From the sequence record OR352940.1: a stretch of 64,000 nt of DNA; one strand, written 5' to 3'. The DNA comes from Escherichia phage AV110. The translations under genes and the position numbers were made by a program. The notes under the pieces were generated by a model. That model did not search any database. It was not told the DNA's origin and saw only the letters and a program-made list of their open reading frames with translations. Positions 7,570-64,000 of the stretch are shown piece by piece (position 1 is the stretch's first letter; every line of letters begins with the position of its first letter).

Positions 7570-9783
7570 TTATTTGGCCGCTTCCACGGCCTTCATGAAT
7601 TTAACGATTTGAGCGACCTGTTCTTTGGAAAGAGTACCACGTCGTCCCATGTAGTCTGACACAATATGATAATTGGTTTCGAATTCAATAACCATTTTAT
7701 CATCATTATCGTAAGCATTATCTTTAAGCTTATCGAAAATTTTAGCACACAATTCTAACTTCTTATTCAGGTCTGTATTAGTAGCACCTGCGAATCGATT
7801 CCATCCCCAACGATTATTTACTGTTGAGAGTTTTGCAAAGTCTTTACTGATTTCTTTGTTCTTAGAGCTAAAATACTTACTAAGGAAGTTAAGCTCTTCA
7901 TTACGAGTAATATGATTCAAATAAGGCTGTGCTCTACGACTTGGTGATACATACTCATCATAATCTACTTTATCGATTAGCGTAATATAGTCGTTAATTG
8001 ATTTTTCGAACAAGCATTCTACTTCACCAAGTTTACGAACTTTCTTAGCAATCTGTGGACGGACTACAGTGAACTCTTTAATACCTGACAAATCAGCAAT
8101 ACGGGTCAAGAAATTGGAGTCATAGTTCAACCAACCTTTATCTGAGTCAAGACATTCAGCATTAGAACGATTACGAACTATAGCATAACCTTGGATTTCA
8201 TCTGCTTCACTTGCCGGAATAAAGAGGTCTTCTGATACCCAAACGTCATTTTCATTCTTAAAGAATCGATGAGCACTTGGCGATTTAGGACGAGGCTCAT
8301 TAGTCCGTTTCCTGACTTCAATCCATGGCTTAACGATTTGTAAAAGCTCTGAAGTCTTGTACATGTTAATGTTGTCGCCATCAAAGATAACTTTAAGGCG
8401 TTCCAGAAGTTTCATTGCATCTTCGTCTGTAGGGTCAACGAATAGTACACTTTTACCAAAACCGCGTGGAACTTTACCAGTTAATTTAACCTCGTCTTTA
8501 GACATTTCAATTGAATTAAGAGCTCGCATTAATGGAACGCGGCCCTTAACGTCGTCAATAACAATTTCAACATTTTTAATGTTAATGCCAATCAGACTGT
8601 TAATTGAAATGGTTGCCGTTGAGCTACCGCTTTCACGAATACGACGAAGACGAGGGGATTCAACGATATCGTATACGACACCAAGATTACACCACTCAGG
8701 CCCCATTTTAAAACGTTTGTACAACTCAGAATAAGTTAGTTGTTCTTTAGAGTATTTCAGTGATTCAATATTAGACCCGGCCTTTTCCATGTATTTACGA
8801 GCGGTATAGCCAAGAGAATCAATTTCACGGAACACATGACGTGGGTATTTACAATCAATCCATTTCTTAGAATCTTCAGCAAATAATTTTGCATCAATTT
8901 CTGCAACACGTTTATGGATATTTGCTACTGTACGTTTATCAAATGACAATGCTTCACGAGACGGGGCTACATCTAGTTCACCCATAGGGAATTTAATATA
9001 AGCTGTAGTGCATCGTGTCATCATCCATGTTTGTTCTTTAATAACACTTCCGATTGGATATACAATACCACCGTAAACAGCCATGATATTACCGCGTTCA
9101 CCCCATGGAGCTTCCTTGGCCAAATATACATCGTCAAATTCAGGGAAGTATTTAATATCTTTAACACCACGAACTTCTGCAATATCACCTAGAGGACGCA
9201 TAACATATGCAATTTCGGATGCGAACTTTTCAAAATCTTCTGGGTTAACAGGCACAACTACTTCAACGCCGGTCCGGTCATCAGGACCCATCTTATCTAC
9301 AAAGGTCGGCTTAATTTGTGGACCCGTGTCATCTTGGTAGATTACGTAACCACGAACTTCACCGTTGTGATAAGACGTAAGGTTAAACGTATCGGTATAT
9401 GCTAGTGGAGCTTTAGAACCGAGTCCGAATCCACCAATGAAATCGTTACTCGATGTTTTAGTTGAAGCAAAATATGAGTTATAGATTCCTGGCTCTTCGT
9501 CATTACCTCGAATGGTGAAATCACTCATACCAGGACCAAAGTCTCGAACTACAAAACGTGGGTCTAAACGACCTGGAGCCTGAACAATAAACTTATCAGT
9601 GCAACCATTAAGAATTTGTCCATCGATACAGTTTGTGATTAATTCACGTACACAAGCCAATTCTTTGTTTGTATAAAGGTCATTAGACAAAATCTTATAA
9701 ACTTTGCTATTGCCTTGAATAGTAAATGCTGTGCTTTTACCACCAGAACCAATAATCGTTTCTTTAGCCGTTTCAATAATCAT
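7570..9783 (-). CDS. rIIA: rIIA
   Basis: 737 aa; N-terminal GHKL-ATPase-like region (ELITNCIDG...DFGPGM); size and position as T4 rIIA. Confidence 0.9.
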   Translation of the reverse strand: MIIETAKETIIGSGGKSTAFTIQGNSKVYKILSNDLYTNKELACVRELITNCIDGQILNGCTDKFIVQAPGRLDPRFVVRDFGPGMSDFTIRGNDEEPGIYNSYFASTKTSSNDFIGGFGLGSKAPLAYTDTFNLTSYHNGEVRGYVIYQDDTGPQIKPTFVDKMGPDDRTGVEVVVPVNPEDFEKFASEIAYVMRPLGDIAEVRGVKDIKYFPEFDDVYLAKEAPWGERGNIMAVYGGIVYPIGSVIKEQTWMMTRCTTAYIKFPMGELDVAPSREALSFDKRTVANIHKRVAEIDAKLFAEDSKKWIDCKYPRHVFREIDSLGYTARKYMEKAGSNIESLKYSKEQLTYSELYKRFKMGPEWCNLGVVYDIVESPRLRRIRESGSSTATISINSLIGINIKNVEIVIDDVKGRVPLMRALNSIEMSKDEVKLTGKVPRGFGKSVLFVDPTDEDAMKLLERLKVIFDGDNINMYKTSELLQIVKPWIEVRKRTNEPRPKSPSAHRFFKNENDVWVSEDLFIPASEADEIQGYAIVRNRSNAECLDSDKGWLNYDSNFLTRIADLSGIKEFTVVRPQIAKKVRKLGEVECLFEKSINDYITLIDKVDYDEYVSPSRRAQPYLNHITRNEELNFLSKYFSSKNKEISKDFAKLSTVNNRWGWNRFAGATNTDLNKKLELCAKIFDKLKDNAYDNDDKMVIEFETNYHIVSDYMGRRGTLSKEQVAQIVKFMKAVEAAK

Positions 9784-9795
9784 ATTTTTCTCTCA

Positions 9796-9996
9796 TCACA
9801 AGTTACGTTTAAAAATTTCTGCCACTTCAAGAAGTTCTTCTTTAGTAGCTGTATCGGTTTGTATTTTATATCGAATTTCTTTAAAGCGTTCTTTAAAGGA
9901 CTCTGCTGACTCGATATCAAAAAATCTTTGGATAAGCCGGAATTCCCGGAGCACTGCTTTATCAAAAAGTTCCAAGTCCACGTTATATGTTCTCAT
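9796..9996 (-). CDS. hypothetical protein (66 aa)
   Basis: ORF between glycosyltransferase and rIIA; position of T4 rIIA.1. Confidence 0.45.
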   Translation of the reverse strand: MRTYNVDLELFDKAVLREFRLIQRFFDIESAESFKERFKEIRYKIQTDTATKEELLEVAEIFKRNL

Positions 9997-10088
9997 AATA
10001 TTCTCTTCAGTAGATTCCTAGGGCACTATTACTAAAGACCATATAATCTATCATCTTATGTGTAATAGTGCCTCAGGCTATTCAGGAT

Positions 10089-11189
10089 TTACGCTGTGAA
10101 GATTTTATCCCACATCGCAACAACTGCATCTCGATTATACTTCTTCCATACTGCTTCAGCACGTTTAACTCGAGCTTCGTATGTGTCAGTGAATTCTAAT
10201 ACAGCTTTTGTGTAAAGCGCAACTACTTCTTTCTTAGGAGTAGAGGAATCAATTTCTACACGCACAGTATCTGGGTCATATTCGAATGTCGCGTGCGGAT
10301 AATCCTTAAAAACTAACTGAATCACAGGGACACCTTTAGAGATGGCTTCAATAGAACTATTCTCTACCGTACCTGTGTCAGGACACGTATTAATAAGTGC
10401 TTTAGCTGTTTTAAGACGTTCCATGATTTCACTGTGTGGAGCATCAATAATAACAGGATACTTAGCCGGTGGTGCCCATTTACTAGGACAGTATCCTGCA
10501 CCATTTTCGCCTAGTGCTTTAATCGCTTCAAGAGCAACATCAGTACGACGCATTTTAGTGTCATAACGTTGTGCACTAATAATCAGATCCGTCGCCGGAA
10601 GAACTTCAGGTTTCTCATTCAAACAAATAACCGGATAATCTTCGGCTTCAAACAACGGATTTGCTCGCCAATAATCATAATCAATTTTGTCAGTCAGACC
10701 TGAAGTCATATAACAATATTTGCGTTCAAATTCACGGAAGGCTTTAGTAGGAGCATAACTCTTACCACCATTCTTATGAATTTGAATAGTCTGGTCCCAA
10801 ATTTGAACAATGCCACGAGATACCGGTTCAAATGGTGTTGCCATAAAATTCTTATGAACTTTAGAGAGACCCGCGTCTTTAATTGCCTGAACGGTTAGTT
10901 TGGTCGGTTCCATTGTAACAACGAAATCATACTCATTAATGCCGGCTAGTTCAACAATCTTACGAGCCATAGTATAACTCATACCTAGACTGAATTTAGT
11001 CAGATGACCAACAGGATGATGATTAACTTTCCAATCACCAAATGTGTCATTATCAAAACCGATATAATCAATATCAGCACCGATGGACACAAGATATTTC
11101 AACACATTTAAATGTACTGCTTCAAGACCACCTTGTACACGGTCAGGATTAAATGGGACTGCACGAGATGGGATAAACATAACTTTCAT
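10089..11189 (-). CDS. GT-B fold glycosyltransferase, candidate DNA hmC glycosyl/arabinosyl-transferase
   Basis: 366 aa; GT4-like N-terminus MKVMFIPSRAVPF...GGLEAVHLNVLKYL and C-terminal E...EAISKGVPVIQ donor-binding pattern; third gene from rIIA, where T4 has gene 60/mobA. Confidence 0.6.
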   Translation of the reverse strand: MKVMFIPSRAVPFNPDRVQGGLEAVHLNVLKYLVSIGADIDYIGFDNDTFGDWKVNHHPVGHLTKFSLGMSYTMARKIVELAGINEYDFVVTMEPTKLTVQAIKDAGLSKVHKNFMATPFEPVSRGIVQIWDQTIQIHKNGGKSYAPTKAFREFERKYCYMTSGLTDKIDYDYWRANPLFEAEDYPVICLNEKPEVLPATDLIISAQRYDTKMRRTDVALEAIKALGENGAGYCPSKWAPPAKYPVIIDAPHSEIMERLKTAKALINTCPDTGTVENSSIEAISKGVPVIQLVFKDYPHATFEYDPDTVRVEIDSSTPKKEVVALYTKAVLEFTDTYEARVKRAEAVWKKYNRDAVVAMWDKIFTA

Positions 11190-55975: not shown

Positions 55976-56332
55976 TTAACCCCGGAGTTTATTGAGCTCT
56001 TCATAATCAATCCAGGATTCTAGCCCTGACGGCAGGTCACATTCAATGTTCCACAGAAGCTCTTCAATGGCTTGCAGGCGATTATATTCTTCAACGGTAA
56101 TGGTAACCATTGGTGCAACCGGTTCTGCCTTTTTAACCATCATATCGTTCATCAGGACGTAAAGGTCATCACGAACGACAGTGTCGTTCCAACCCCATGA
56201 TTTGGCTTCGTAAGCTAATGATGAAGGGAGCACATTTAAAACTTCAATAATAGTTGGAGCATCAGGACCAAGTTCATTGGCACAAACTTCGTATACATCT
56301 TGGAAATCTTTAAGATTTAATGAATATGTCAT
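55976..56332 (-). CDS. hypothetical protein (118 aa)
   Basis: ATGA-coupled to nrdC. Confidence 0.5.
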   Translation of the reverse strand: MTYSLNLKDFQDVYEVCANELGPDAPTIIEVLNVLPSSLAYEAKSWGWNDTVVRDDLYVLMNDMMVKKAEPVAPMVTITVEEYNRLQAIEELLWNIECDLPSGLESWIDYEELNKLRG

Positions 56333-56592
56333 TTAAAATATTCTCGTAGTTGGTCAAAGCCACCGATCGAAGTTCCATCAGGAGCAAACACTTGAGGCAT
56401 AGTCAATCCGACTTGTGATTCACGTCCAAGCTTAGTCAGAAGCTCAGCAATTTTTTCTTCATCGAATACACCTTTTTCTGGCATAACATTAATGAATTCG
56501 AACGGCTGTTTCTTAACAGTCAGCAATCGTTTCGCATTATCACAATAAATGCATTTATGAATAGTAGAGTCATACCCGTACACTTTAAACAT
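56329..56592 (-). CDS. nrdC: thioredoxin NrdC
   Basis: 87 aa from MFKVYGYDSTIHKCIYCDNAKRLL (ATG 56592, AAGGAAA RBS), CxxC active site; matches T4 nrdC as recalled. Confidence 0.85.
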   Translation of the reverse strand: MFKVYGYDSTIHKCIYCDNAKRLLTVKKQPFEFINVMPEKGVFDEEKIAELLTKLGRESQVGLTMPQVFAPDGTSIGGFDQLREYFK

Positions 56593-56998
56593 TATTTTTC
56601 CTTTCATCGATTAAATATGCAATGCCAAATACAATACATGTAATAAAACCTGTGATACAGATAGAAACCAACAACACCGTACCAAAGAACCAAATCAAGT
56701 TATCTTTAGTAGTTTGTTTGATATCCATCTCACGAATTTCTATAGCTATCGTATCACCTTTATTCAGAAGCGTATAAAATGATGGAGATACACGCCTGTC
56801 AAAAACTCGTCCTTGCTCATCTTTATAAACTGCAATAAATTCTAATTTAGAATATTTTCCTGTAGATTGACCTGAAATTAATTCCACTACCTCCACAGGA
56901 ATTACTTTAGTTTCCATGTAAGTATTCTGGCTGTTCCAAATGAATGGAATGATGGCAAAAACTAAAGCTGCGATAAAACAACGAAGGCTATATCTCAT
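56585..56998 (-). CDS. membrane protein (137 aa)
   Basis: N- and C-terminal hydrophobic segments; position of T4 nrdC.1. Confidence 0.5.
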   Translation of the reverse strand: MRYSLRCFIAALVFAIIPFIWNSQNTYMETKVIPVEVVELISGQSTGKYSKLEFIAVYKDEQGRVFDRRVSPSFYTLLNKGDTIAIEIREMDIKQTTKDNLIWFFGTVLLVSICITGFITCIVFGIAYLIDERKNNV

Positions 56999-57303
56999 TA
57001 TAATGTTCTCTCAAATTTATGGAAGCATTTACGGCATTTCAATTTCAAGTTATCAGTGGTCCAGTTAACCAGTTGGACTTGGATAGTTCCACATTCCGGG
57101 CATGGATGTTTTGCTGCCGATTTGGCAGCATTTTCACGTCGTTCAACCATTTTCATTATTTCGTTCCATGCCGGAGGAACGAACTCTTCTTCACCGTGGA
57201 TTTTATCTCGCTGAACAAATTCGATCTTTGAACTATCGTCAATAAACTTAACCAAGCCATGATTAGTGCTCATATCAATATCCTCTAAAAGACGTAGTTT
57301 CAT
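56998..57303 (-). CDS. zinc-ribbon protein (101 aa)
   Basis: C-terminal CPEC...CRKC pair. Confidence 0.5.
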   Translation of the reverse strand: MKLRLLEDIDMSTNHGLVKFIDDSSKIEFVQRDKIHGEEEFVPPAWNEIMKMVERRENAAKSAAKHPCPECGTIQVQLVNWTTDNLKLKCRKCFHKFERTL

Positions 57304-58253
57304 TATAACACCTCAATGGCATTTCGTAAACCATCCGCTTTCGCATTCAGAGCTTTTAACGATTTAGTTTGTTCTGCAATCTGGGCTTCGACTTCTTTCA
57401 GACGAGATTTGAGATATTCGCGTTCTTCTCTTAAGTTATCAACTTTTTCTGCTTTAGGCTCTTTAATAGGCTTAGGCTTATACTCGTTAGGGTTCTTCAA
57501 CTTAATTTGAATGCGAGAACTGTATAACATTGAACCATTAGCTTCGGTTTCATCATACATTTCTACCACGTCCATGATTCTTAACATCATGCGAAGTTTA
57601 TAAGACAGCGAACGAACGGTTTTGTTGCGCTTATTAATTTCTTCGGCTTTCATGGTACCGAGATTACGTGAGTAGTAATAAGGAACCTGGATATCAATTG
57701 ATAATGATGCGTTACCATTACCGGTTGGTTTGAATACTGCAGTAACCCAATCTTTAACATGAACTTTATTTGTACGATCATCGCCGCCTGTGAATAATTT
57801 ACGAGAATGTTTAAAAAGCATATTCACTTGGTTATTGAATTCACAAGCAAATTTATCAGCAAATTTAGTTTCAGGAATGGTAGATAACCAATCAGCCAAA
57901 TGAGTCTTTTTAACATCATTAACAATAGTGAATTCAACCAAATCGGTTTTAGATGTCACAGATTTAATAAAGCTCGGCTTCATAAAGTTTTTAATGTTAT
58001 CGCGAGCTACAGTAGAAGATAATAAACGAGAACGTTTAAACCATTGAAGCAACGTCCCTAACGAATGAGAATACGCATTTTGAGTATCTTTACAGATATG
58101 ATTTTCTTGGCCTATGTATGTACCAAAATCGCGAAGAATACCACTTACTACATCTCGGTGTGGAACATCAAATCCTAGTGCACCAGAAGCACGTTGGGCA
58201 TGAACGTTAGCGATAAGACCTGCAAAGTATTCAATGTAATGTGAACGTGTCAT
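57303..58253 (-). CDS. hypothetical protein with C-terminal coiled coil (316 aa)
   Basis: Heptad-like charged C-terminus; early promoter upstream. Confidence 0.5.
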   Translation of the reverse strand: MTRSHYIEYFAGLIANVHAQRASGALGFDVPHRDVVSGILRDFGTYIGQENHICKDTQNAYSHSLGTLLQWFKRSRLLSSTVARDNIKNFMKPSFIKSVTSKTDLVEFTIVNDVKKTHLADWLSTIPETKFADKFACEFNNQVNMLFKHSRKLFTGGDDRTNKVHVKDWVTAVFKPTGNGNASLSIDIQVPYYYSRNLGTMKAEEINKRNKTVRSLSYKLRMMLRIMDVVEMYDETEANGSMLYSSRIQIKLKNPNEYKPKPIKEPKAEKVDNLREEREYLKSRLKEVEAQIAEQTKSLKALNAKADGLRNAIEVL

Positions 58254-58280
58254 AATATTTTCCTCTCGTTAAGATAGATT

Positions 58281-58309
58281 CATTATACTCCAACCATCCT
58301 TGGTTGTAC
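58281..58309 (-). promoter_or_regulatory. early-type promoter (TGTACA-17-TATAAT)
   Basis: Upstream of ORF 57303..58253. Confidence 0.45.
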
Positions 58310-58310
58310 A

Positions 58311-59306
58311 TCATTCCTTAAGAAGTTTTACTACTTGAATAAGATTAGCTCGTTCTGTTTTATTTTTACCATTTAAGCCTGCTAATCGTGAGATTTCATC
58401 GTCGGTCTGTTGAATAGTTACATTAAGTTCGTTAATCAAAGCTTCAAAGTATTTGATTTGCTCAGCATGTTTTGATTCAAATTTCTGAACAGGAATAACG
58501 TCTTGGTTTAGTTCATCAATAAGGTCTTTAAGAGCATCTTCTTGGTTGATATCATATTCAACTTCTTTTATTTCTTCAACGAGCTCGTCTTTATATCTAA
58601 CGTCTTTTAGTCCTGGTGCTGGTCCTGAAATCTCTTCTTTAAGAGTACAAACATACCCAATACGGTATCCAATGCCGTCTCGCTTGATATCAACTTCGTC
58701 GATAAATCCACAATGTTTAAGACCAGAGCCGATTAGGTCAAAATATCCTTGACGTCGTCCTTCAAACGTTACACGAACTACTAAGACAGTTTTGCCACCA
58801 ACCTTTTGAAGCTCACATTTATAAAAGTCTGTTGAACCTGAATAACTTGGATGAGTTTTAAAGTTCATCTGACGATCTAGGCCCATTTGTAAACGTGCTG
58901 TTACGGCCATAAAACGTGTTTGGTTCTCGTTAAGATGAGCAACAATCCATTTCAAAGGCATTTTACACTGTTCACGACCGAACAAATCGGTACGTCCTAG
59001 ATTACGCAGGATGTTGTTAGAGTTAATCATCGACAGAACGTTAAGTTTATTCAGCGCGCTGAAGATTCCATCAGCCATTGATTTTCCATAACCTTTACAC
59101 GCTTTAATAAGTGCTCGCGGCAGATTAGTATAGATTTCAGACGGCATATGAAAATCAAATTTACTAGTCAGTAATTGATGAACTTGGATAGCAATTTGCT
59201 CATAATTAAGTGCTCTGCGATCGTTATGGTCTTTAAACCACACTTTAATCTGTGAAGCACATAAACCGTTAATTTCATGTTTTACCGCATCAGATGTAAT
59301 GCTCAT
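58311..59306 (-). CDS. hypothetical protein with C-terminal coiled coil (331 aa)
   Basis: C-terminal 80 aa acidic coiled coil; MotA-box middle promoter upstream. Confidence 0.5.
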   Translation of the reverse strand: MSITSDAVKHEINGLCASQIKVWFKDHNDRRALNYEQIAIQVHQLLTSKFDFHMPSEIYTNLPRALIKACKGYGKSMADGIFSALNKLNVLSMINSNNILRNLGRTDLFGREQCKMPLKWIVAHLNENQTRFMAVTARLQMGLDRQMNFKTHPSYSGSTDFYKCELQKVGGKTVLVVRVTFEGRRQGYFDLIGSGLKHCGFIDEVDIKRDGIGYRIGYVCTLKEEISGPAPGLKDVRYKDELVEEIKEVEYDINQEDALKDLIDELNQDVIPVQKFESKHAEQIKYFEALINELNVTIQQTDDEISRLAGLNGKNKTERANLIQVVKLLKE

Positions 59307-59341
59307 AACTATTTCCTCAGATTGAATTGGAACTCAAAACC

Positions 59342-59366
59342 ATTATAACCCGTCCTTGGGTAAAGC
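59342..59366 (-). promoter_or_regulatory. possible middle promoter (GCTTTA box, 13 bp, TATAAT)
   Basis: ACGCTTTA box after stop of 59369..59896, upstream of 58311..59306. Confidence 0.35.
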
Positions 59367-59368
59367 GT

Positions 59369-59896
59369 TTATGCGTGAACCGTCTTTAAACGTTCTTCAA
59401 ATTTCCGAAGAGTACTAATACGTTCTGCTTTCTGTTTTGTATAGTTTGCAATACGTTCTGAAGTGAGAGCGTATCGTTCGTTTACTGTTTCTTTCATGAA
59501 GTCAGGGATTTCACGAGAAGCTTTAATTTCATCAAACTTATCGAGTACTGCCTGGTCTTCAGCGATTAAATTTTCATACATCTCGATATCTTTCTTGATA
59601 AACTCGATATCTTCCTGGGTTACTTTGGATAAACGAGATGCTTTATCCTTTTTGTACTGCTCGTTAGTTTCACGAGACCAGAATAATGTACGTTTTTTGT
59701 TAGTGTTTTTGTAGACTTCCGCAATTCCAACTGAATCGATGATAACAATCCAATTCCAGCGAGATTTGAAAATCTGACCTCCGTCTACGGTAATCTCGTT
59801 ACCATAAGCAACGTCATTAAAGAACTTGCTTTGTGCTTCAGATTTAAATTTTCCGTCGTTATAATTTACCAGGTTGAAAATATCTTTAGCGTTCAT
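59369..59896 (-). CDS. hypothetical protein (175 aa)
   Basis: GGAGGT RBS and early promoter upstream. Confidence 0.5.
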   Translation of the reverse strand: MNAKDIFNLVNYNDGKFKSEAQSKFFNDVAYGNEITVDGGQIFKSRWNWIVIIDSVGIAEVYKNTNKKRTLFWSRETNEQYKKDKASRLSKVTQEDIEFIKKDIEMYENLIAEDQAVLDKFDEIKASREIPDFMKETVNERYALTSERIANYTKQKAERISTLRKFEERLKTVHA

Positions 59897-59923
59897 GTTT
59901 TACCTCCAGTAGTTGATAGGTCT

Positions 59924-59952
59924 ATAATAACATAACTATAGACCTTGTAAAC
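59924..59952 (-). promoter_or_regulatory. early promoter (GTTTAC-17-TATTAT)
   Basis: Family-1 element with GGTCTATA/TATAGACC inverted repeat around -10. Confidence 0.5.
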
Positions 59953-59954
59953 AA

Positions 59955-60242
59955 CTAAAAGAAACTTTTTTCGGTATTTTTTCCACTGAACCAAACAGAC
60001 TTCGGGATTTTTTGTAATTTTTCAGATTTAAGTTTCTCTTCCTGTTCTTTCTTATATACACCCTTGTCGTACTGGAGCATCTCTATGGCATTCTTTTGCA
60101 AACGATCTAAGGTAATTAAGGCTTTAGTTTTTCCTTTCAAGGAAGAGTCCTGGCGAACCTCCTCACTATATTGCATCGTAGAACTAACCATACGATGAGC
60201 ATACAGTTCGACTGCGGCTTTATTTTTTTGCATAAAATCCAT
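59955..60242 (-). CDS. hypothetical protein (95 aa)
   Basis: AGAGGA RBS. Confidence 0.45.
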   Translation of the reverse strand: MDFMQKNKAAVELYAHRMVSSTMQYSEEVRQDSSLKGKTKALITLDRLQKNAIEMLQYDKGVYKKEQEEKLKSEKLQKIPKSVWFSGKNTEKSFF

Positions 60243-60379
60243 AACATATCCTCTTTGATTTGTACATCATTATTTTAAATATTTCTATGCCCTCAGTAGG
60301 TTCCTGGTGTCCTTCTTTGAGGTAAGCCATATGATTATTCATCTTTATGGCTTTTGTTACCTCAGAACTTCCTATAAGC

Positions 60380-61381
60380 TTATTTCAGTAAAGTTACTTC
60401 AGAGATTTCCTCCCAACCATCTTTATCAGTTGAAATAAAATCTGCTACATAAAGAGCGGTACGTAATGATACATTGCGAAGACGAGATACATTAGCCTTC
60501 ATCCAGGACAATGCTTTATACGTTTCTGCATCAGTCAGACCACGTTTCTGCATCATGTCAGTAGATAATATTACATCTTCAACTCGAACCATAATCTCTT
60601 CATTAGAGTGTACTCCAAGGTCGAGATACACTGAGCGAGATACTAAAGCTTGAAGGTGTGGAGCAAGTTTCGAACCGCGTTCTAACTCTTTATCGATATC
60701 AACGTTTGTAATGAAAACGATAGTACCTTCAAACTCAAATTCTTTATCAATACCCTTATCATCGAGATAAGATGACGCAGTGCTCCAACAAACTTTGCGT
60801 TTATCTCCAGTATCTAATGCTGCTTTAAGAAGATTCAAGATGTCCATATCTGAGAATACGTCAACGTCATCGATTAAGAGAACGCTGTCTGCATCACGGT
60901 TGAGCCAAAGTTGTTCGTAAAGGCCAATACCAGAGATTTTACCATTAATGCTTTTGTATTTGATGAAACCATTATCATTAGCATTATTAAGTGCTTTATC
61001 CAGAGAATACGTCTTACCAATACCGGCTGCACCTGAAATAATGAGTGAACGAATTTTGCCATCGATAATGCCATTCGTCATCATGTTCATTACTTTAAAG
61101 CGTTTGTTGATACGAGTTTTCATATCTTCAGTGCTTTCAACAACTGCAACTGGTGATGTCTCAACTCCTTCCATTACGATGTCTGATTTGAAGACCCATA
61201 CTCCACGTTCAGAACCATCAATCATAACGAAAATTTTACCGTCACCTAAGTGGGAACATTCAGGATTAAGCTTTGCTGGGAACCAGGTCTTTGTGGCAAC
61301 ATAAGAACCAGAGATTTCGTTATTACGATAGATACCTTTTTTGATTTGAACGTTGAACATTTTATTCTCCAATTTACTCAT
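60380..61381 (-). CDS. P-loop NTPase, AAA-like (333 aa)
   Basis: Walker A ISGAAGIGKTYS, Walker B VLLIDDVD, sensor-like TIVFITN; own promoter. Confidence 0.6.
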   Translation of the reverse strand: MSKLENKMFNVQIKKGIYRNNEISGSYVATKTWFPAKLNPECSHLGDGKIFVMIDGSERGVWVFKSDIVMEGVETSPVAVVESTEDMKTRINKRFKVMNMMTNGIIDGKIRSLIISGAAGIGKTYSLDKALNNANDNGFIKYKSINGKISGIGLYEQLWLNRDADSVLLIDDVDVFSDMDILNLLKAALDTGDKRKVCWSTASSYLDDKGIDKEFEFEGTIVFITNVDIDKELERGSKLAPHLQALVSRSVYLDLGVHSNEEIMVRVEDVILSTDMMQKRGLTDAETYKALSWMKANVSRLRNVSLRTALYVADFISTDKDGWEEISEVTLLK

Positions 61382-61398
61382 TTCGTTTCGATAGGTCT

Positions 61399-61427
61399 AT
61401 AATAACATATCCTAAAAGCATGTACAC
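61399..61427 (-). promoter_or_regulatory. early-type promoter (GTGTAC-17-TATTAT)
   Basis: Family-1 downstream motif AGACCTATCG; upstream of P-loop NTPase gene. Confidence 0.45.
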
Positions 61428-61447
61428 TACTTTTTTAAATATTTTAA

Positions 61448-61463
61448 CCCCCTAAAGGGACCC
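61448..61463 (-). terminator. hairpin terminator downstream of secreted-protein gene
   Basis: GGGACC-UUCG-GGUCCC; weak U-tract. Confidence 0.4.
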
Positions 61464-61477
61464 GAAGGTCCCCACAT

Positions 61478-61759
61478 TTACTTATCGCACTTAGCAACAT
61501 AATTAGGCATATCACAGAATACAGAGCGAGTAACTACTCGGCCCTTTGTCCATGCTTCAGTCGCTTGTCCGGCCGTGCTATTAATATAGCTTGATTTAAT
61601 GTTCTCAATACCTTGAGAATGTGATGCATTTACCGAACCATTGGAAGGCCCAGAAGACTGGTTACCACCAGCTCCTGCACTACCGCTGGCTGCACCCGTG
61701 GTAGCACCAACAGAGAATGTCATCATTACTGCGAATAAACCAATTGCTAATTTTTTCAT
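61478..61759 (-). CDS. secreted Gly/Ser-rich small protein (93 aa)
   Basis: Signal peptide MKKLAIGLFAVMMTFSVGA; low-complexity G/S/A/N region; late promoter TATAAATA about 33 nt upstream; hairpin terminator downstream. Confidence 0.5.
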   Translation of the reverse strand: MKKLAIGLFAVMMTFSVGATTGAASGSAGAGGNQSSGPSNGSVNASHSQGIENIKSSYINSTAGQATEAWTKGRVVTRSVFCDMPNYVAKCDK

Positions 61760-61790
61760 ATTTACCTCAAGTTAAGGGTTATTTATCTAC

Positions 61791-62780
61791 TTATTTATAG
61801 TAAGAATTATGATTTTCGAGATAGACTTGCTCAAGGAAATCATCCCAGAAACTCATATCTACTTTTTGTTGCATACCATTCTTGGCAGCTTGTTCTGACG
61901 CATGTTCAACTTGGTCAACGATATCTTCTAGGAATTCTTGTACAGTTTTAAACGTATGTTTACCAAGCTTAACATCGAGAATAAATGGAGCATCCTGAAG
62001 TGGGTAAACCAGGTCGCCGGTTTTGTAAATTTCTAATAGTTGAAGTCCACCACGACATGCATGACTCAATGCTTTCCAGTCAATACCTTCGTTAGCTTCT
62101 GCCTTACGAGCACGTTCACCGTAGTTCTCTTCCAGTTTAACCAGGATGGCATTGAACTCTTTATTGGTTAACGTATCTTGGAATTTACGGTCTAACAGAT
62201 TATAGAATGTTTGCTTACCTGTTTTCTCGTTTTCGGTTTCAACCCACGAAGCAAATTCACCTACAGGCAGAACATTCTTCATATGTGATAAACGAATTAC
62301 TGCACCATTATCAAAGTATTGTCCCCATTCATTAGAACGTTTAAGGGCTTGACGAAGAACAGCCAGTCGAGAACCCTTGACACCGTATTTAGAAGCTTGC
62401 TTACGGACATACCCTAAATAAGATTTCATGTTAGTGGTATAGAAGCGAGACCTGTTATCTTGAATATACTTCCATACATCAGGCAAATCAGATTTAACTA
62501 CTAGACTTTGCGGAGTGTGAAGCATATCTAATGCGACGGTTTCACCATCCGCAGCTAGTTTAAAGAAATATTTGAGACTATACAATTCATGGTCTACGTC
62601 GTCTTTTGTGTTCTTAGAAGATGTGTTATTCGTGTTCTTGCTCATGTGTTCTTTAACGTTACCGGTCAAAATATCACGAGCATGAGGGATATAAATTTCT
62701 TTAAAATCTACGTCAGATTCAGGAGTAGACGTTCCATAAAGGTGGCTACCAAAGTAGCCTTTCATAATTGTTTTCATCAT
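61791..62780 (-). CDS. Pol-beta-superfamily nucleotidyltransferase-fold protein (329 aa)
   Basis: N-terminal GS-x10-D-x-D signature GYFGSHLYGTSTPESDVDF. Confidence 0.55.
   Translation of the reverse strand: MMKTIMKGYFGSHLYGTSTPESDVDFKEIYIPHARDILTGNVKEHMSKNTNNTSSKNTKDDVDHELYSLKYFFKLAADGETVALDMLHTPQSLVVKSDLPDVWKYIQDNRSRFYTTNMKSYLGYVRKQASKYGVKGSRLAVLRQALKRSNEWGQYFDNGAVIRLSHMKNVLPVGEFASWVETENEKTGKQTFYNLLDRKFQDTLTNKEFNAILVKLEENYGERARKAEANEGIDWKALSHACRGGLQLLEIYKTGDLVYPLQDAPFILDVKLGKHTFKTVQEFLEDIVDQVEHASEQAAKNGMQQKVDMSFWDDFLEQVYLENHNSYYK
61792..61799 (-). promoter_or_regulatory. late promoter TATAAATA
   Basis: Exact late consensus about 33 nt upstream of the secreted-protein gene 61478..61759. Confidence 0.5.
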
Positions 62781-63250
62781 TTAGCCTTATATTCAAGAGT
62801 AGGACAGACTTTTTCTTTACGAGCTTTAAGGTATTCACCTATTAATGATTTCTTACGTTCAATAGGCTCAAGTCCATTTTTAATTCGTTCTTGGTTTTGT
62901 GCAATGAGCTCAACTTCTTTATAATACTTCCGCTCTCTGTATAAGTCGATTAGCCACGGTATGCCTAATACTAAAACTATAGAAATACCAACACATAATG
63001 CAATGAATAAAACACCTACACCAATTGAGGCCGGAACTAATGTCCATAAACTACTAAAGACAAAGAATTTAGTTAAAATTTCCTGGCCAACGATTGTGGC
63101 CGCTGCTAAAATCGCAAATCCAATAATCGAAACAAACAATACCGGGAGAAACGTTTTCCAAAAATAAGCACACAACGTTTTCGGGCGATTCCATGTACTA
63201 TTAAACGCGGTATAAATTTTAAAGTGCCAAGAGTTTTCATTGATAATCAT
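62777..63250 (-). CDS. membrane protein (157 aa)
   Basis: Multiple hydrophobic segments; basic C-terminus. Confidence 0.5.
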   Translation of the reverse strand: MIINENSWHFKIYTAFNSTWNRPKTLCAYFWKTFLPVLFVSIIGFAILAAATIVGQEILTKFFVFSSLWTLVPASIGVGVLFIALCVGISIVLVLGIPWLIDLYRERKYYKEVELIAQNQERIKNGLEPIERKKSLIGEYLKARKEKVCPTLEYKAK

Positions 63251-63259
63251 AATAATTCC

Positions 63260-63802
63260 TTATTTCAAAGTTGGGATAATAGAATCGAGATAAGCTTTAA
63301 GAGCAACTGCCTCATCTTTGTCTAATGTAATGATATGTTGACGAAGGTCATCAATTTGGCGAATAACTACGACATCACCGTCTTCATAAGAAGGATTAAC
63401 GCCTAGGACTGTTGTATAGTCAGGGCGGTCCTGATTTGTAATAAAAGCATTACGGCATTTAGCCCATTGAAGTTTGGCCTTTTTGGCTGTTTCAGATTCC
63501 ATTAATTCTTTCACCTTATTGACAAATGTTTTCCAATTATTAATAGAAAAACATTCGTCTTCAGTTTCGATATTAACCCCACTATAAAGTCCGTGATAAA
63601 AACGAACTTGAAGGTCTTCATCAATGTTAATTACAGATGCATGGCCGGGTGGATTGAGTTTCAAAATCTTGTCCAGTTCCATAGGAAGAATAGTAGCAGC
63701 ATCATCTTCTTGTGTCAGAACATACACATAACCACGTTTTTCGATACATAAATCACCAAACAACTCGGTTGTTTCAATTACAGTTTTCATATTATTCACC
63801 AA
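63260..63802 (-). CDS. hypothetical protein (180 aa)
   Basis: ORF. Confidence 0.5.
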   Translation of the reverse strand: MVNNMKTVIETTELFGDLCIEKRGYVYVLTQEDDAATILPMELDKILKLNPPGHASVINIDEDLQVRFYHGLYSGVNIETEDECFSINNWKTFVNKVKELMESETAKKAKLQWAKCRNAFITNQDRPDYTTVLGVNPSYEDGDVVVIRQIDDLRQHIITLDKDEAVALKAYLDSIIPTLK

Positions 63803-63971
63803 TTAAAGTTTCAACAAAATTCACCAAATCATTCAGACAAGCATCAACCTGTTTTTCATAAAAGTCTTCGTTATCATTTACTGCATGATAAGCTACATCA
63901 TTCAAATCTGAATCGGCTTCACGTAAGTCACGGATAAGGTCCATCAATTTATTAGCTTGTTCACGGGTCAT
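63792..63971 (-). CDS. small acidic protein (59 aa)
   Basis: Hand-found ORF MTREQANKLMDLIRDLREADSDL... at window edge; coordinates +-1. Confidence 0.3.
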   Translation of the reverse strand: MTREQANKLMDLIRDLREADSDLNDVAYHAVNDNEDFYEKQVDACLNDLVNFVETLIGE

Positions 63972-64000
63972 TTTACCATACTCGTTTCAATAAGATTCAC

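Follow-up and report, generated by a model that had tools for sequence, protein, structure and literature searches.

A nine-gene block of Escherichia phage AV110 as a probable counterpart of the T4 nrdC.3-to-mobD.1 accessory segment

Introduction

The region between nrdC and rI of bacteriophage T4 carries open reading frames (ORFs), nrdC.1 to nrdC.11 and mobD.1 among them, whose names reflect their position and most of which are uncharacterised. All of these were classified as "Non-essential" in the HIDEN-SEQ transposon screen, and in genome-reduced T4 the segments nrdC.1-6 and nrdC.11-mobD.3 were spontaneously lost. For nrdC.10 and nrdC.11 an assignment as AAA protein and nucleotidyltransferase (NTase), respectively, has been in print since 2006. 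Here we analyse a block of nine genes at positions 57303-63802 of a 64,000-nucleotide stretch of Escherichia phage AV110 (record OR352940.1), in the following referred to as the window, and compare it with this accessory region of T4.

For the wider 49-nrdC.x region, a role in counter-defence is supported by experiments. T4 nrdC.5 makes cells with the SIR2 defence Dsr1 susceptible to infection again, T4 nrdC.1 is a reported inhibitor of Septu and Gp49.2 of phage T6 inhibits OLD. Gene exchange in the hyperplastic regions of T4-like phages has been attributed to promoter-early stem-loop (PeSL) elements, which were described as drivers of cassette exchange (Arbiol, 2010; Comeau, 2014).

Biochemical data are available for bacterial enzymes of the RlaP family (Pfam PF10127), to whose cluster 5 T4 NrdC.11 was assigned in a preprint of 2025. 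According to this preprint, two RlaPs of Pseudomonas (PfRlaP and PaRlaP) add one or two nucleoside monophosphates to the 3'-OH ends of RNA, not of DNA, and need three strictly conserved Asp residues for catalysis. They prefer mimics of toxin-cleaved tRNA and restore the aminoacylation of a tRNA that lacks one nucleotide of the anticodon loop. Bacterial RlaPs extend damaged RNA 3' ends before ligation, and the same role in RNA repair had been predicted earlier from comparisons of jumbo phages.

Results and Discussion

Identity of the block

The block consists of nine ORFs, all on the minus strand, which encode proteins of 316, 331, 175, 95, 333, 93, 329, 157 and 180 amino acids (aa). BLASTP searches against the T4 proteins of the region revealed homologues for seven of them (nrdC.3, nrdC.6, nrdC.8, nrdC.9, nrdC.10, nrdC.11 and mobD.1), and these are arranged in the T4 order. 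Strand and flanking genes are likewise those of T4, with nrdD, the endonuclease VII gene (49), pin and nrdC upstream and, in relatives, rI and tk downstream. We consider the block to be the Mosigvirus counterpart of the dispensable, early-transcribed and swap-prone nrdC.3-to-mobD.1 segment, which forms a mosaic of separately promoted genes and not one machine, and we assign to this reading a probability of roughly 70%. The block is thus already recognised and not unmapped. Over its full length it shares 97.6% DNA identity with sequenced Mosigvirus genomes. Matches were found in 834 phage records, in 150 of which at least 80% of its length is covered. Its GC content (34-40%) is similar to that of the flanks. 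The following genes were assigned:

57303-58253, minus strand: nrdC.3-like protein, 316 aa, N-terminal part helical, long C-terminal helix strongly conserved and coiled-coil-like; 56% full-length identity to T4 nrdC.3
58311-59306, minus strand: nrdC.6-like protein, 331 aa, with a conserved heptad-rich C-terminal helix; 29% identity to T4 nrdC.6
59369-59896, minus strand: nrdC.8 homologue, 175 aa; 83% identity to T4 nrdC.8; phrog_2274
59955-60242, minus strand: nrdC.9-like protein, 95 aa, DUF7203 (Pfam PF23833, E = 2.3e-22); 31% identity to T4 nrdC.9
60380-61360, minus strand: nrdC.10 homologue, AAA+ ATPase, 326 aa; 77.5% identity to T4 nrdC.10
61478-61759, minus strand: small secreted-type protein, 93 aa, Gly/Ser-rich, with a signal-peptide-like hydrophobic N-terminus and two C-terminal Cys residues; phrog_2243
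61791-62780, minus strand: nrdC.11 homologue, NTase of the Pol-beta superfamily and the RlaP family (Pfam), 328-329 aa; 78% identity to T4 nrdC.11
62777-63250, minus strand: membrane protein, 157 aa, with two to three predicted spans (hydrophobic stretches 29-60 and 62-105); phrog_944
63260-63790, minus strand: mobD.1 homologue (y05I family), 176 aa; 45% identity to T4 mobD.1

For three of these genes the start differs, or may differ, from that of the mechanically predicted ORF. The ATPase ORF spans 60380-61381 (333 aa), and translation probably begins at M8 (61360), the start found in T4 and in the RefSeq entry of p000v, the closest annotated relative. The NTase possibly starts at its second Met. 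For the mobD.1-like gene the mechanical ORF (63260-63802, 180 aa) begins with TTG, while the likely start is the ATG at 63790 that is also used in p000v.

Four T4 genes, nrdC.1, nrdC.4, nrdC.5 and mobD, are absent from the whole 64-kb window. The position of mobD is occupied by the gene of the 157-aa membrane protein, and an additional gene, encoding the 93-aa secreted-type protein, lies between nrdC.11 and nrdC.10; for neither protein was a counterpart found by BLASTP in the nrdC-rI region of T4. Furthermore, the nrdC.7-like gene of the window adjoins nrdC, whereas nrdC.7 of T4 is located between nrdC.6 and nrdC.8.

A previous inspection of the window, made from the sequence alone (the sequence-only reading), had described this interval as an accessory block. 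It had listed an AAA-like P-loop NTPase with the motifs GAAGIGKT and LLIDDVD, an NTase-fold protein with a GS-x10-DVD motif, two large proteins with C-terminal coiled coils, a membrane protein and a secreted Gly/Ser-rich protein. All nine ORFs and the cited motifs were found, and the individual protein descriptions agree with our results given below. The accessory character is in line with the non-essential T4 homologues, which lie in deletable segments. The statement that none of the genes maps to recognised T4 functions has to be corrected, as seven of the nine are homologous to named, though uncharacterised, T4 ORFs.

Backbone and cassettes

For the comparison of gene neighbourhoods 79 viral loci around homologues of the ATPase were used, 42 of them with an ATPase identity of at least 57% and 37 with more distant ATPases. 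In the 42 closer loci the genes recur in a fixed order: the membrane protein and the NTase were each present in 39, nrdC.9 (downstream of the ATPase) in 31 and mobD.1 in 29. These loci show that mobD.1/y05I, the membrane protein, nrdC.11, nrdC.10 and nrdC.9 form a backbone which is conserved in the T4-like phages of enterobacteria and Acinetobacter. Between nrdC.10 and nrdC.2, genes recognisable as nrdC.3-.8 occur only in the T4, RB69 and JS98 groups, and in other genera this interval is filled with unrelated genes. The nrdC.8, nrdC.6-like and nrdC.3-like genes are hypervariable cassettes, which, judged from sequence comparison, are probably gained and lost by recombination between the short promoter/stem-loop repeats lying between them.

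In most relatives the match to the block is split into two pieces by about 1 kb of extra sequence. The extra sequence is a gene of 319 aa between the nrdC.3-like and nrdC.6-like genes (positions 9770-10890 in relative L010), which is carried by 133 phage records and is homologous to T4 nrdC.5 (25% identity, E = 1e-10). In L010 this cassette is located between two copies of a promoter/stem-loop repeat of about 30 bp. The corresponding spacer of the window, 58254-58310, is a hybrid: its left half equals the L010 repeat upstream of the nrdC.5-like gene, its right half the repeat downstream of it. Such a hybrid joint is the product expected of recombination between the flanking repeats. The nrdC.5-type cassette would accordingly have been lost or never gained in AV110, and the direction of this change is inferred.

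Promoters and hairpins in the spacers

Promoter-like sites are present in five spacers of the block, and the repeats D1, D3 and D7 recur among them:

58254-58310, minus strand: promoter TGTACA-N17-TATAAT with embedded stem-loop CAACCA/TGGTTG at the joint of the missing cassette (promoter scan and sequence; hairpin weak, z = -0.07)
59307-59368, minus strand: promoter-like element GCTTTACCC...TTATAAT upstream of the nrdC.6-like gene (sequence)
59897-59954, minus strand: early promoter GTTTACA-N16-TATTAT, crossed by an 11-bp hairpin (-16 kcal/mol, z = -3.46), upstream of nrdC.8
60243-60379, minus strand: strong hairpin (-20.8 kcal/mol, z = -4.75) just past the ATPase gene and a partly degraded promoter repeat (repeats D3, D7)
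61382-61477, minus strand: terminator-like GC hairpin GGGGACC-UUCG-GGUCCC with U-run, followed by the early promoter GTGTACA...TATTAT of the ATPase gene (repeats D1, D3)

Each or nearly each gene appears to possess its own promoter-like site of early or middle type. Promoters and terminators were annotated at corresponding positions by the authors of the genome of SA79RD, a close relative: the site equivalent to 59307-59368 was labelled as T4 middle-promoter-like, and terminators were placed at the sites of the hairpins in 60243-60379 and 61382-61477. For the GC/UUCG hairpin region upstream of the ATPase, folding of the entire 56 nt is not superior to that of shuffled sequences (z = -1.36). 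The D1 repeat, 42 nt long, 79% identical and ending with ATGTTATTATAGACCTATC, occurs at 59905-59956 and 61390-61431, upstream of nrdC.8 and nrdC.10, respectively; in the nrdC.8 copy the 11-bp hairpin reaches from the -35 to the -10 region.

The elements fit the consensus TTTACW-N17-TAYWAT of the PeSLs from phages PST and T4, and are found at the cassette borders. In common with PeSL cassettes the block has repeated composites of early promoter and hairpin between small accessory genes, and an insertion/deletion joint inside two such repeats. In contrast to the described elements, the hairpins here lie within or beside the promoter and not always upstream of it, and the hairpin at the deletion joint is weak. 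A scan of positions 56000-64000 against Rfam at E ≤ 0.1 gave no match.

The nucleotidyltransferase

The GS-x10-DVD motif is present in the 329-aa protein (FGSHLYGTSTPESDVD). The protein matches the Pfam family RlaP (PF10127) over residues 7-152 with 49.6 bits (gathering score 23, E = 5.7e-13) and phrog_388, annotated as "nucleotidyltransferase" (E = 2.9e-126). All of 14 homologues, with identities down to 50%, have G11, S12, D23, D25 and D85, the last being a third Asp, so that the enzyme shares with RlaPs an above-threshold profile match as well as the GS...DxD motif and the third Asp. The gene is widespread in Straboviridae and was found in 1519 phage records. On the basis of these similarities the NTase can be assigned to the RNA-repair family RlaP, which fits a counter-defence against RNA-cleaving toxins. 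The genomic context is different, as bacterial rlaP genes lie beside an RNA ligase gene or an rtc operon and the phage gene does not. The T4 map had led us to expect pseT or rnlA near the block; this was rejected, since neither lies within 29 kb in the p000v annotation.

The ATPase and its relation to the nucleotidyltransferase

In the 333-aa protein the residues G110, A111, G113, G115, K116 and T117 of GAAGIGKT and D164 and D165 of LLIDDVD are invariant among 35 homologues, as are the sensor-1 Asn and several Arg residues. AlphaFold2 predicted with confidence (predicted local distance difference test, pLDDT, 89) a beta-rich N-terminal domain (approximately residues 1-64) followed by the AAA+ core and a helical lid. 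With Walker A, Walker B, sensor 1, the Arg residues and an alpha-beta-alpha core with helical lid, membership in the AAA+ superfamily is established. Best structural matches were MoxR-type proteins, and NtrC-type AAA+ domains were also among the best. The identity to MoxR-type AAA+ proteins such as NorQ and CbbQ is 10-14%, with other AAA+ clades scoring nearly equal; a gene for a VWA-domain partner is missing and the N-terminal beta domain is phage-specific. In PDB sequence searches the ATPase gave chance-level matches only. It is a generic AAA+ protein, for which we collected 885 homologues and which occurs in 1311 phage records. Proteins of the nrdC.10 type extend far beyond the T-even phages: they are encoded, with 33-45% identity, on aquatic metagenomic viral contigs (IMG/VR, L050-L088) and in Vibrio phages. 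Copies in jumbo phages such as RaK2 are devoid of the N-terminal beta domain, and structural relatives exist in Roseobacter phage RDJL Phi 1 and other unrelated phages.

The sequence-only reading had pointed out that combinations of NTase and ATPase recur in defence and counter-defence systems. A coupled two-component module of defence or counter-defence, in which the ATPase would for instance load the NTase on its substrate or regulate it, could draw on several observations. Both genes are widespread in Straboviridae, and they are neighbours in T4, in Acinetobacter phage Konradin and in the closer loci, where the NTase lies just upstream of the ATPase in 39 of 42. Moreover, bacterial RlaP is encoded in rtcBA operons which are regulated by the AAA+ activator RtcR, a relation that recalls the NtrC-type structural matches of our ATPase. 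The pairing argument fails because the two genes of the window are divided by a separate promoter and a terminator-like element, and because they are not adjacent in distant relatives. Between them lie the 93-aa gene, the terminator-like GC hairpin (UUCG loop, U-run) and the separate promoter, and an NTase gene was found within 10 kb in none of the 37 loci with more distant ATPases. The two genes are adjacent in Konradin but non-adjacent in an Aeromonas phage, a Vibrio phage, a Vibrio contig and metagenomic relatives. A search of the distant loci for a conserved partner of the ATPase gave neighbours unrelated to those in T-even phages, and no PADLOC defence model, those of NTase plus ATPase type included, was matched at E < 1e-3 by the nine block proteins or the flanking nrdC.2-like ORF. 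The weakest hits, for the nrdC.3-like protein (0.0028) and the nrdC.2-like ORF outside the block (0.0035), were judged as noise. We therefore think that NTase and ATPase are not a coupled pair, and regard the module as improbable.

The coiled-coil-tailed proteins and NrdC.5

Both large proteins possess long C-terminal helices, and a crude heptad score of their C-terminal parts exceeded that of 95% of shuffled sequences, in agreement with the coiled coils proposed before. The nrdC.3-like protein belongs to phrog_1435 (function unknown) and is rare, with just 33 clusters in 5.8 billion proteins. Its AlphaFold2 model is poor (pLDDT 56), with a predicted helix at residues 275-315; the Foldseek matches of this model to other T4-like phage proteins (template modelling score 0.3-0.4) were not used as evidence. 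The nrdC.6-like protein (phrog_2257) is even narrower in distribution: four clusters were found and, in an exhaustive HMMER search of 1.84 billion proteins, six representatives, all from one narrow phage family. An invariant C-terminal motif, DDEI-RL...K-K-ER...LLK, characterises the family. PDB sequence searches with both proteins gave chance-level matches only.

The reference nrdC.6 of T4 (L003 4067-4894, 275 aa) is devoid of the C-terminal coiled coil conserved in its homologues (...DDEIFRLSGL..KAK.ER...LLK). In the T4D annotation of the HIDEN-SEQ supplement nrdC.6 is longer (891 nt), which points to a frameshift in the reference or to a difference between strains.

With T4 NrdC.5, the Dsr1 inhibitor, the nrdC.3-like and nrdC.6-like proteins share their build, that is about 250-300 aa with a conserved coiled-coil-like C-terminal helix. 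T4 NrdC.5, T4 NrdC.1 and T6 Gp49.2 furthermore resemble the block in genomic neighbourhood, early expression and dispensability in laboratory hosts. Homology was detected between the families of nrdC.3 and nrdC.4 (hhalign 97.5%, E = 5.9e-12, 209 columns; HMMER match to nrdC.4 with 29.8 bits). The combined nrdC.3 and nrdC.4 profile is colinear with the nrdC.5 profile over 167 columns, with weak values (hhalign probability 30%, E = 5.5e-4). The idea that nrdC.3, nrdC.4, nrdC.5 and nrdC.6 constitute a single paralogous family was given up, as only the pair nrdC.3-nrdC.4 is supported, nrdC.5 being borderline and nrdC.6 unsupported. What may be entertained, tentatively and with considerable doubt, is that NrdC.3, NrdC.4 and NrdC.5 form one fast-diversifying early family with a variable globular head and a conserved coiled-coil tail, each member directed against a different defence. 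If this were true, the action of NrdC.5 on Dsr1 would be the first case to be solved, and the cassette borders would let phages trade inhibitors. The nrdC.3-like protein of the window would then be an inhibitor of some other defence system and the nrdC.6-like protein, being of the same build, perhaps too.

Membrane protein, secreted-type protein and remaining genes

Hydrophobic segments and composition are in line with a membrane protein and a secreted-type Gly/Ser-rich protein. The stop codon of the 157-aa gene overlaps the start codon of the NTase gene (ATGA), and its family phrog_944 is placed in the PHROG category "moron, auxiliary metabolic gene and host takeover". In the 93-aa protein 58% of the residues after the N-terminal hydrophobic segment are Gly, Ser, Ala, Asn or Thr. 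It shows a sub-threshold resemblance to the enterobacterial Pfam family YbgS (22.6 versus 27 bits), from which it could be speculated that the gene is host-derived.

The signal-peptide-like and membrane-spanning segments of these two proteins, together with the host-takeover category of phrog_944 and the lysis-inhibition gene rI within about 1-4 kb in related loci, raise the question of an envelope role for part of the block. The two proteins would then act in superinfection exclusion or lysis timing like Imm, Sp and RI of T4. As no similarity to characterised exclusion or lysis proteins was found in Pfam, PHROG and NCBIfam, we consider this rather unlikely; it would also cover two of the nine genes only and be compatible with a mosaic of separately promoted accessory genes.

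The mobD.1-like protein matches the Pfam families T4_y05I_N (E = 1.1e-39) and T4_y05I_C (E = 1.8e-19), which are described as putative transcription factor. The nrdC.8 homologue had no Pfam match.

Biological role of the block

Under the proposed reading the genes of the block would be expressed early and adapt the infected cell. The phage RlaP would repair RNA ends, and the AAA+ protein would act as a MoxR-like remodeller independently of the NTase. The nrdC.3-like and possibly the nrdC.6-like protein may bind and neutralise particular host defence proteins, as their neighbour NrdC.5 does. Likewise the backbone (y05I, membrane protein, RlaP, AAA+ and DUF7203) might be an RNA-damage response module that complements the kinase/ligase repair of T4, a weaker possibility than that of a NrdC.3/4/5 family.

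Several points weigh against this reading. In the literature no phenotype was found for nrdC.3,.6,.8,.9,.10,.11 or mobD.1; the text on the T4 transposon screen names nrdC.1 and none of nrdC.3-.11, and in its comparison of the reference with delta-rnlA the block homologues all have an adjusted p of 1. That the backbone genes adjoin each other in 39 of 42 loci has been discounted here but could mean functional coupling. As regards the NTase, the Pfam RlaP alignment covers just the N-terminal 150 residues of the phage protein, the known biochemistry is limited to the Pseudomonas enzymes, and PDB searches with the sequence or a profile of the NTase matched no solved structure (chance-level matches only). 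No RNA ligase or kinase gene is found near it: in p000v no ligase is annotated within about 4 kb on either side of the block, and over the next 29 kb a single product, about 21 kb away, bears the label "RNA ligase". In related loci none of the ORFs within 10 kb that could be identified by similarity is a ligase. The link between nrdC.3/4 and NrdC.5 is borderline, below any safe threshold of homology, and should be taken as a lead rather than a finding; the nrdC.6-like family has no profile link to nrdC.3, nrdC.4 or nrdC.5 (hhalign 0.4-4%).

The interpretation of the block as a host-interaction island, put forward in the sequence-only reading, is reasonable in the light of the nearby counter-defence genes and the fit of RlaP. 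The region is, however, already known, and no phenotype was found inside the block. None of nrdC.5, nrdC.1 and 49.2 lies within it, and two of the three are absent from this phage.

The nrdC.x names and database labels would rather point to a housekeeping role in nucleotide metabolism or DNA replication. Many GenBank records label nrdC.x ORFs as "thioredoxin" (up to eight per record), others as "helicase loader" or "clamp loader", and nrdC.8 has been taken for a nucleotide reductase in one recent paper. Searches of Pfam and NCBIfam with the nine proteins revealed no match to a thioredoxin, reductase or replication family, and an NCBIfam scan of the nine and the flanking nrdC.2-like ORF gave nothing meaningful. 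These labels are unsupported by family searches and appear to be derived from the gene names, which are positional. The T4 homologues are non-essential and deletable, the best structural matches of the ATPase are MoxR-type proteins and not clamp loaders, and the cassette part is confined to few genera, unlike core metabolism. A housekeeping role is hence very improbable.

Read as an accessory mosaic, the block is a classic example of T4-like regions whose gene content differs between otherwise near-identical phages, probably contributing to host range, and the current understanding of T4-like phages is left unchanged. Since AV110 has no nrdC.5-type (anti-Dsr1) gene, no nrdC.1 and no nrdC.4, its sensitivity is predicted to differ from that of its relatives on hosts with Dsr1 or Septu. 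This is of relevance for the choice of therapeutic phages and for the search for inhibitors of bacterial defences.

Neighbouring genes

The nrdC.7-like gene of the window (56585-56998), which encodes a membrane protein with 41% identity to T4 nrdC.7, represents another relocation of a cassette. It is followed by a homologue of nrdC.2 (56998-57303, 51% identity to T4) with a zinc-ribbon-like motif, CPEC...CRKC, and a weak, sub-threshold match to the zinc-binding family YnfU (20 bits versus a cut-off of 36). At the other end of the block, just upstream of the mobD.1-like gene, lies an ORF of 59 aa (63792-63971), labelled as "helicase loader" in the RefSeq entry of p000v. It matches T4 mobD.4 marginally (E = 0.005), and its stop codon nearly abuts the ATG of the next gene.

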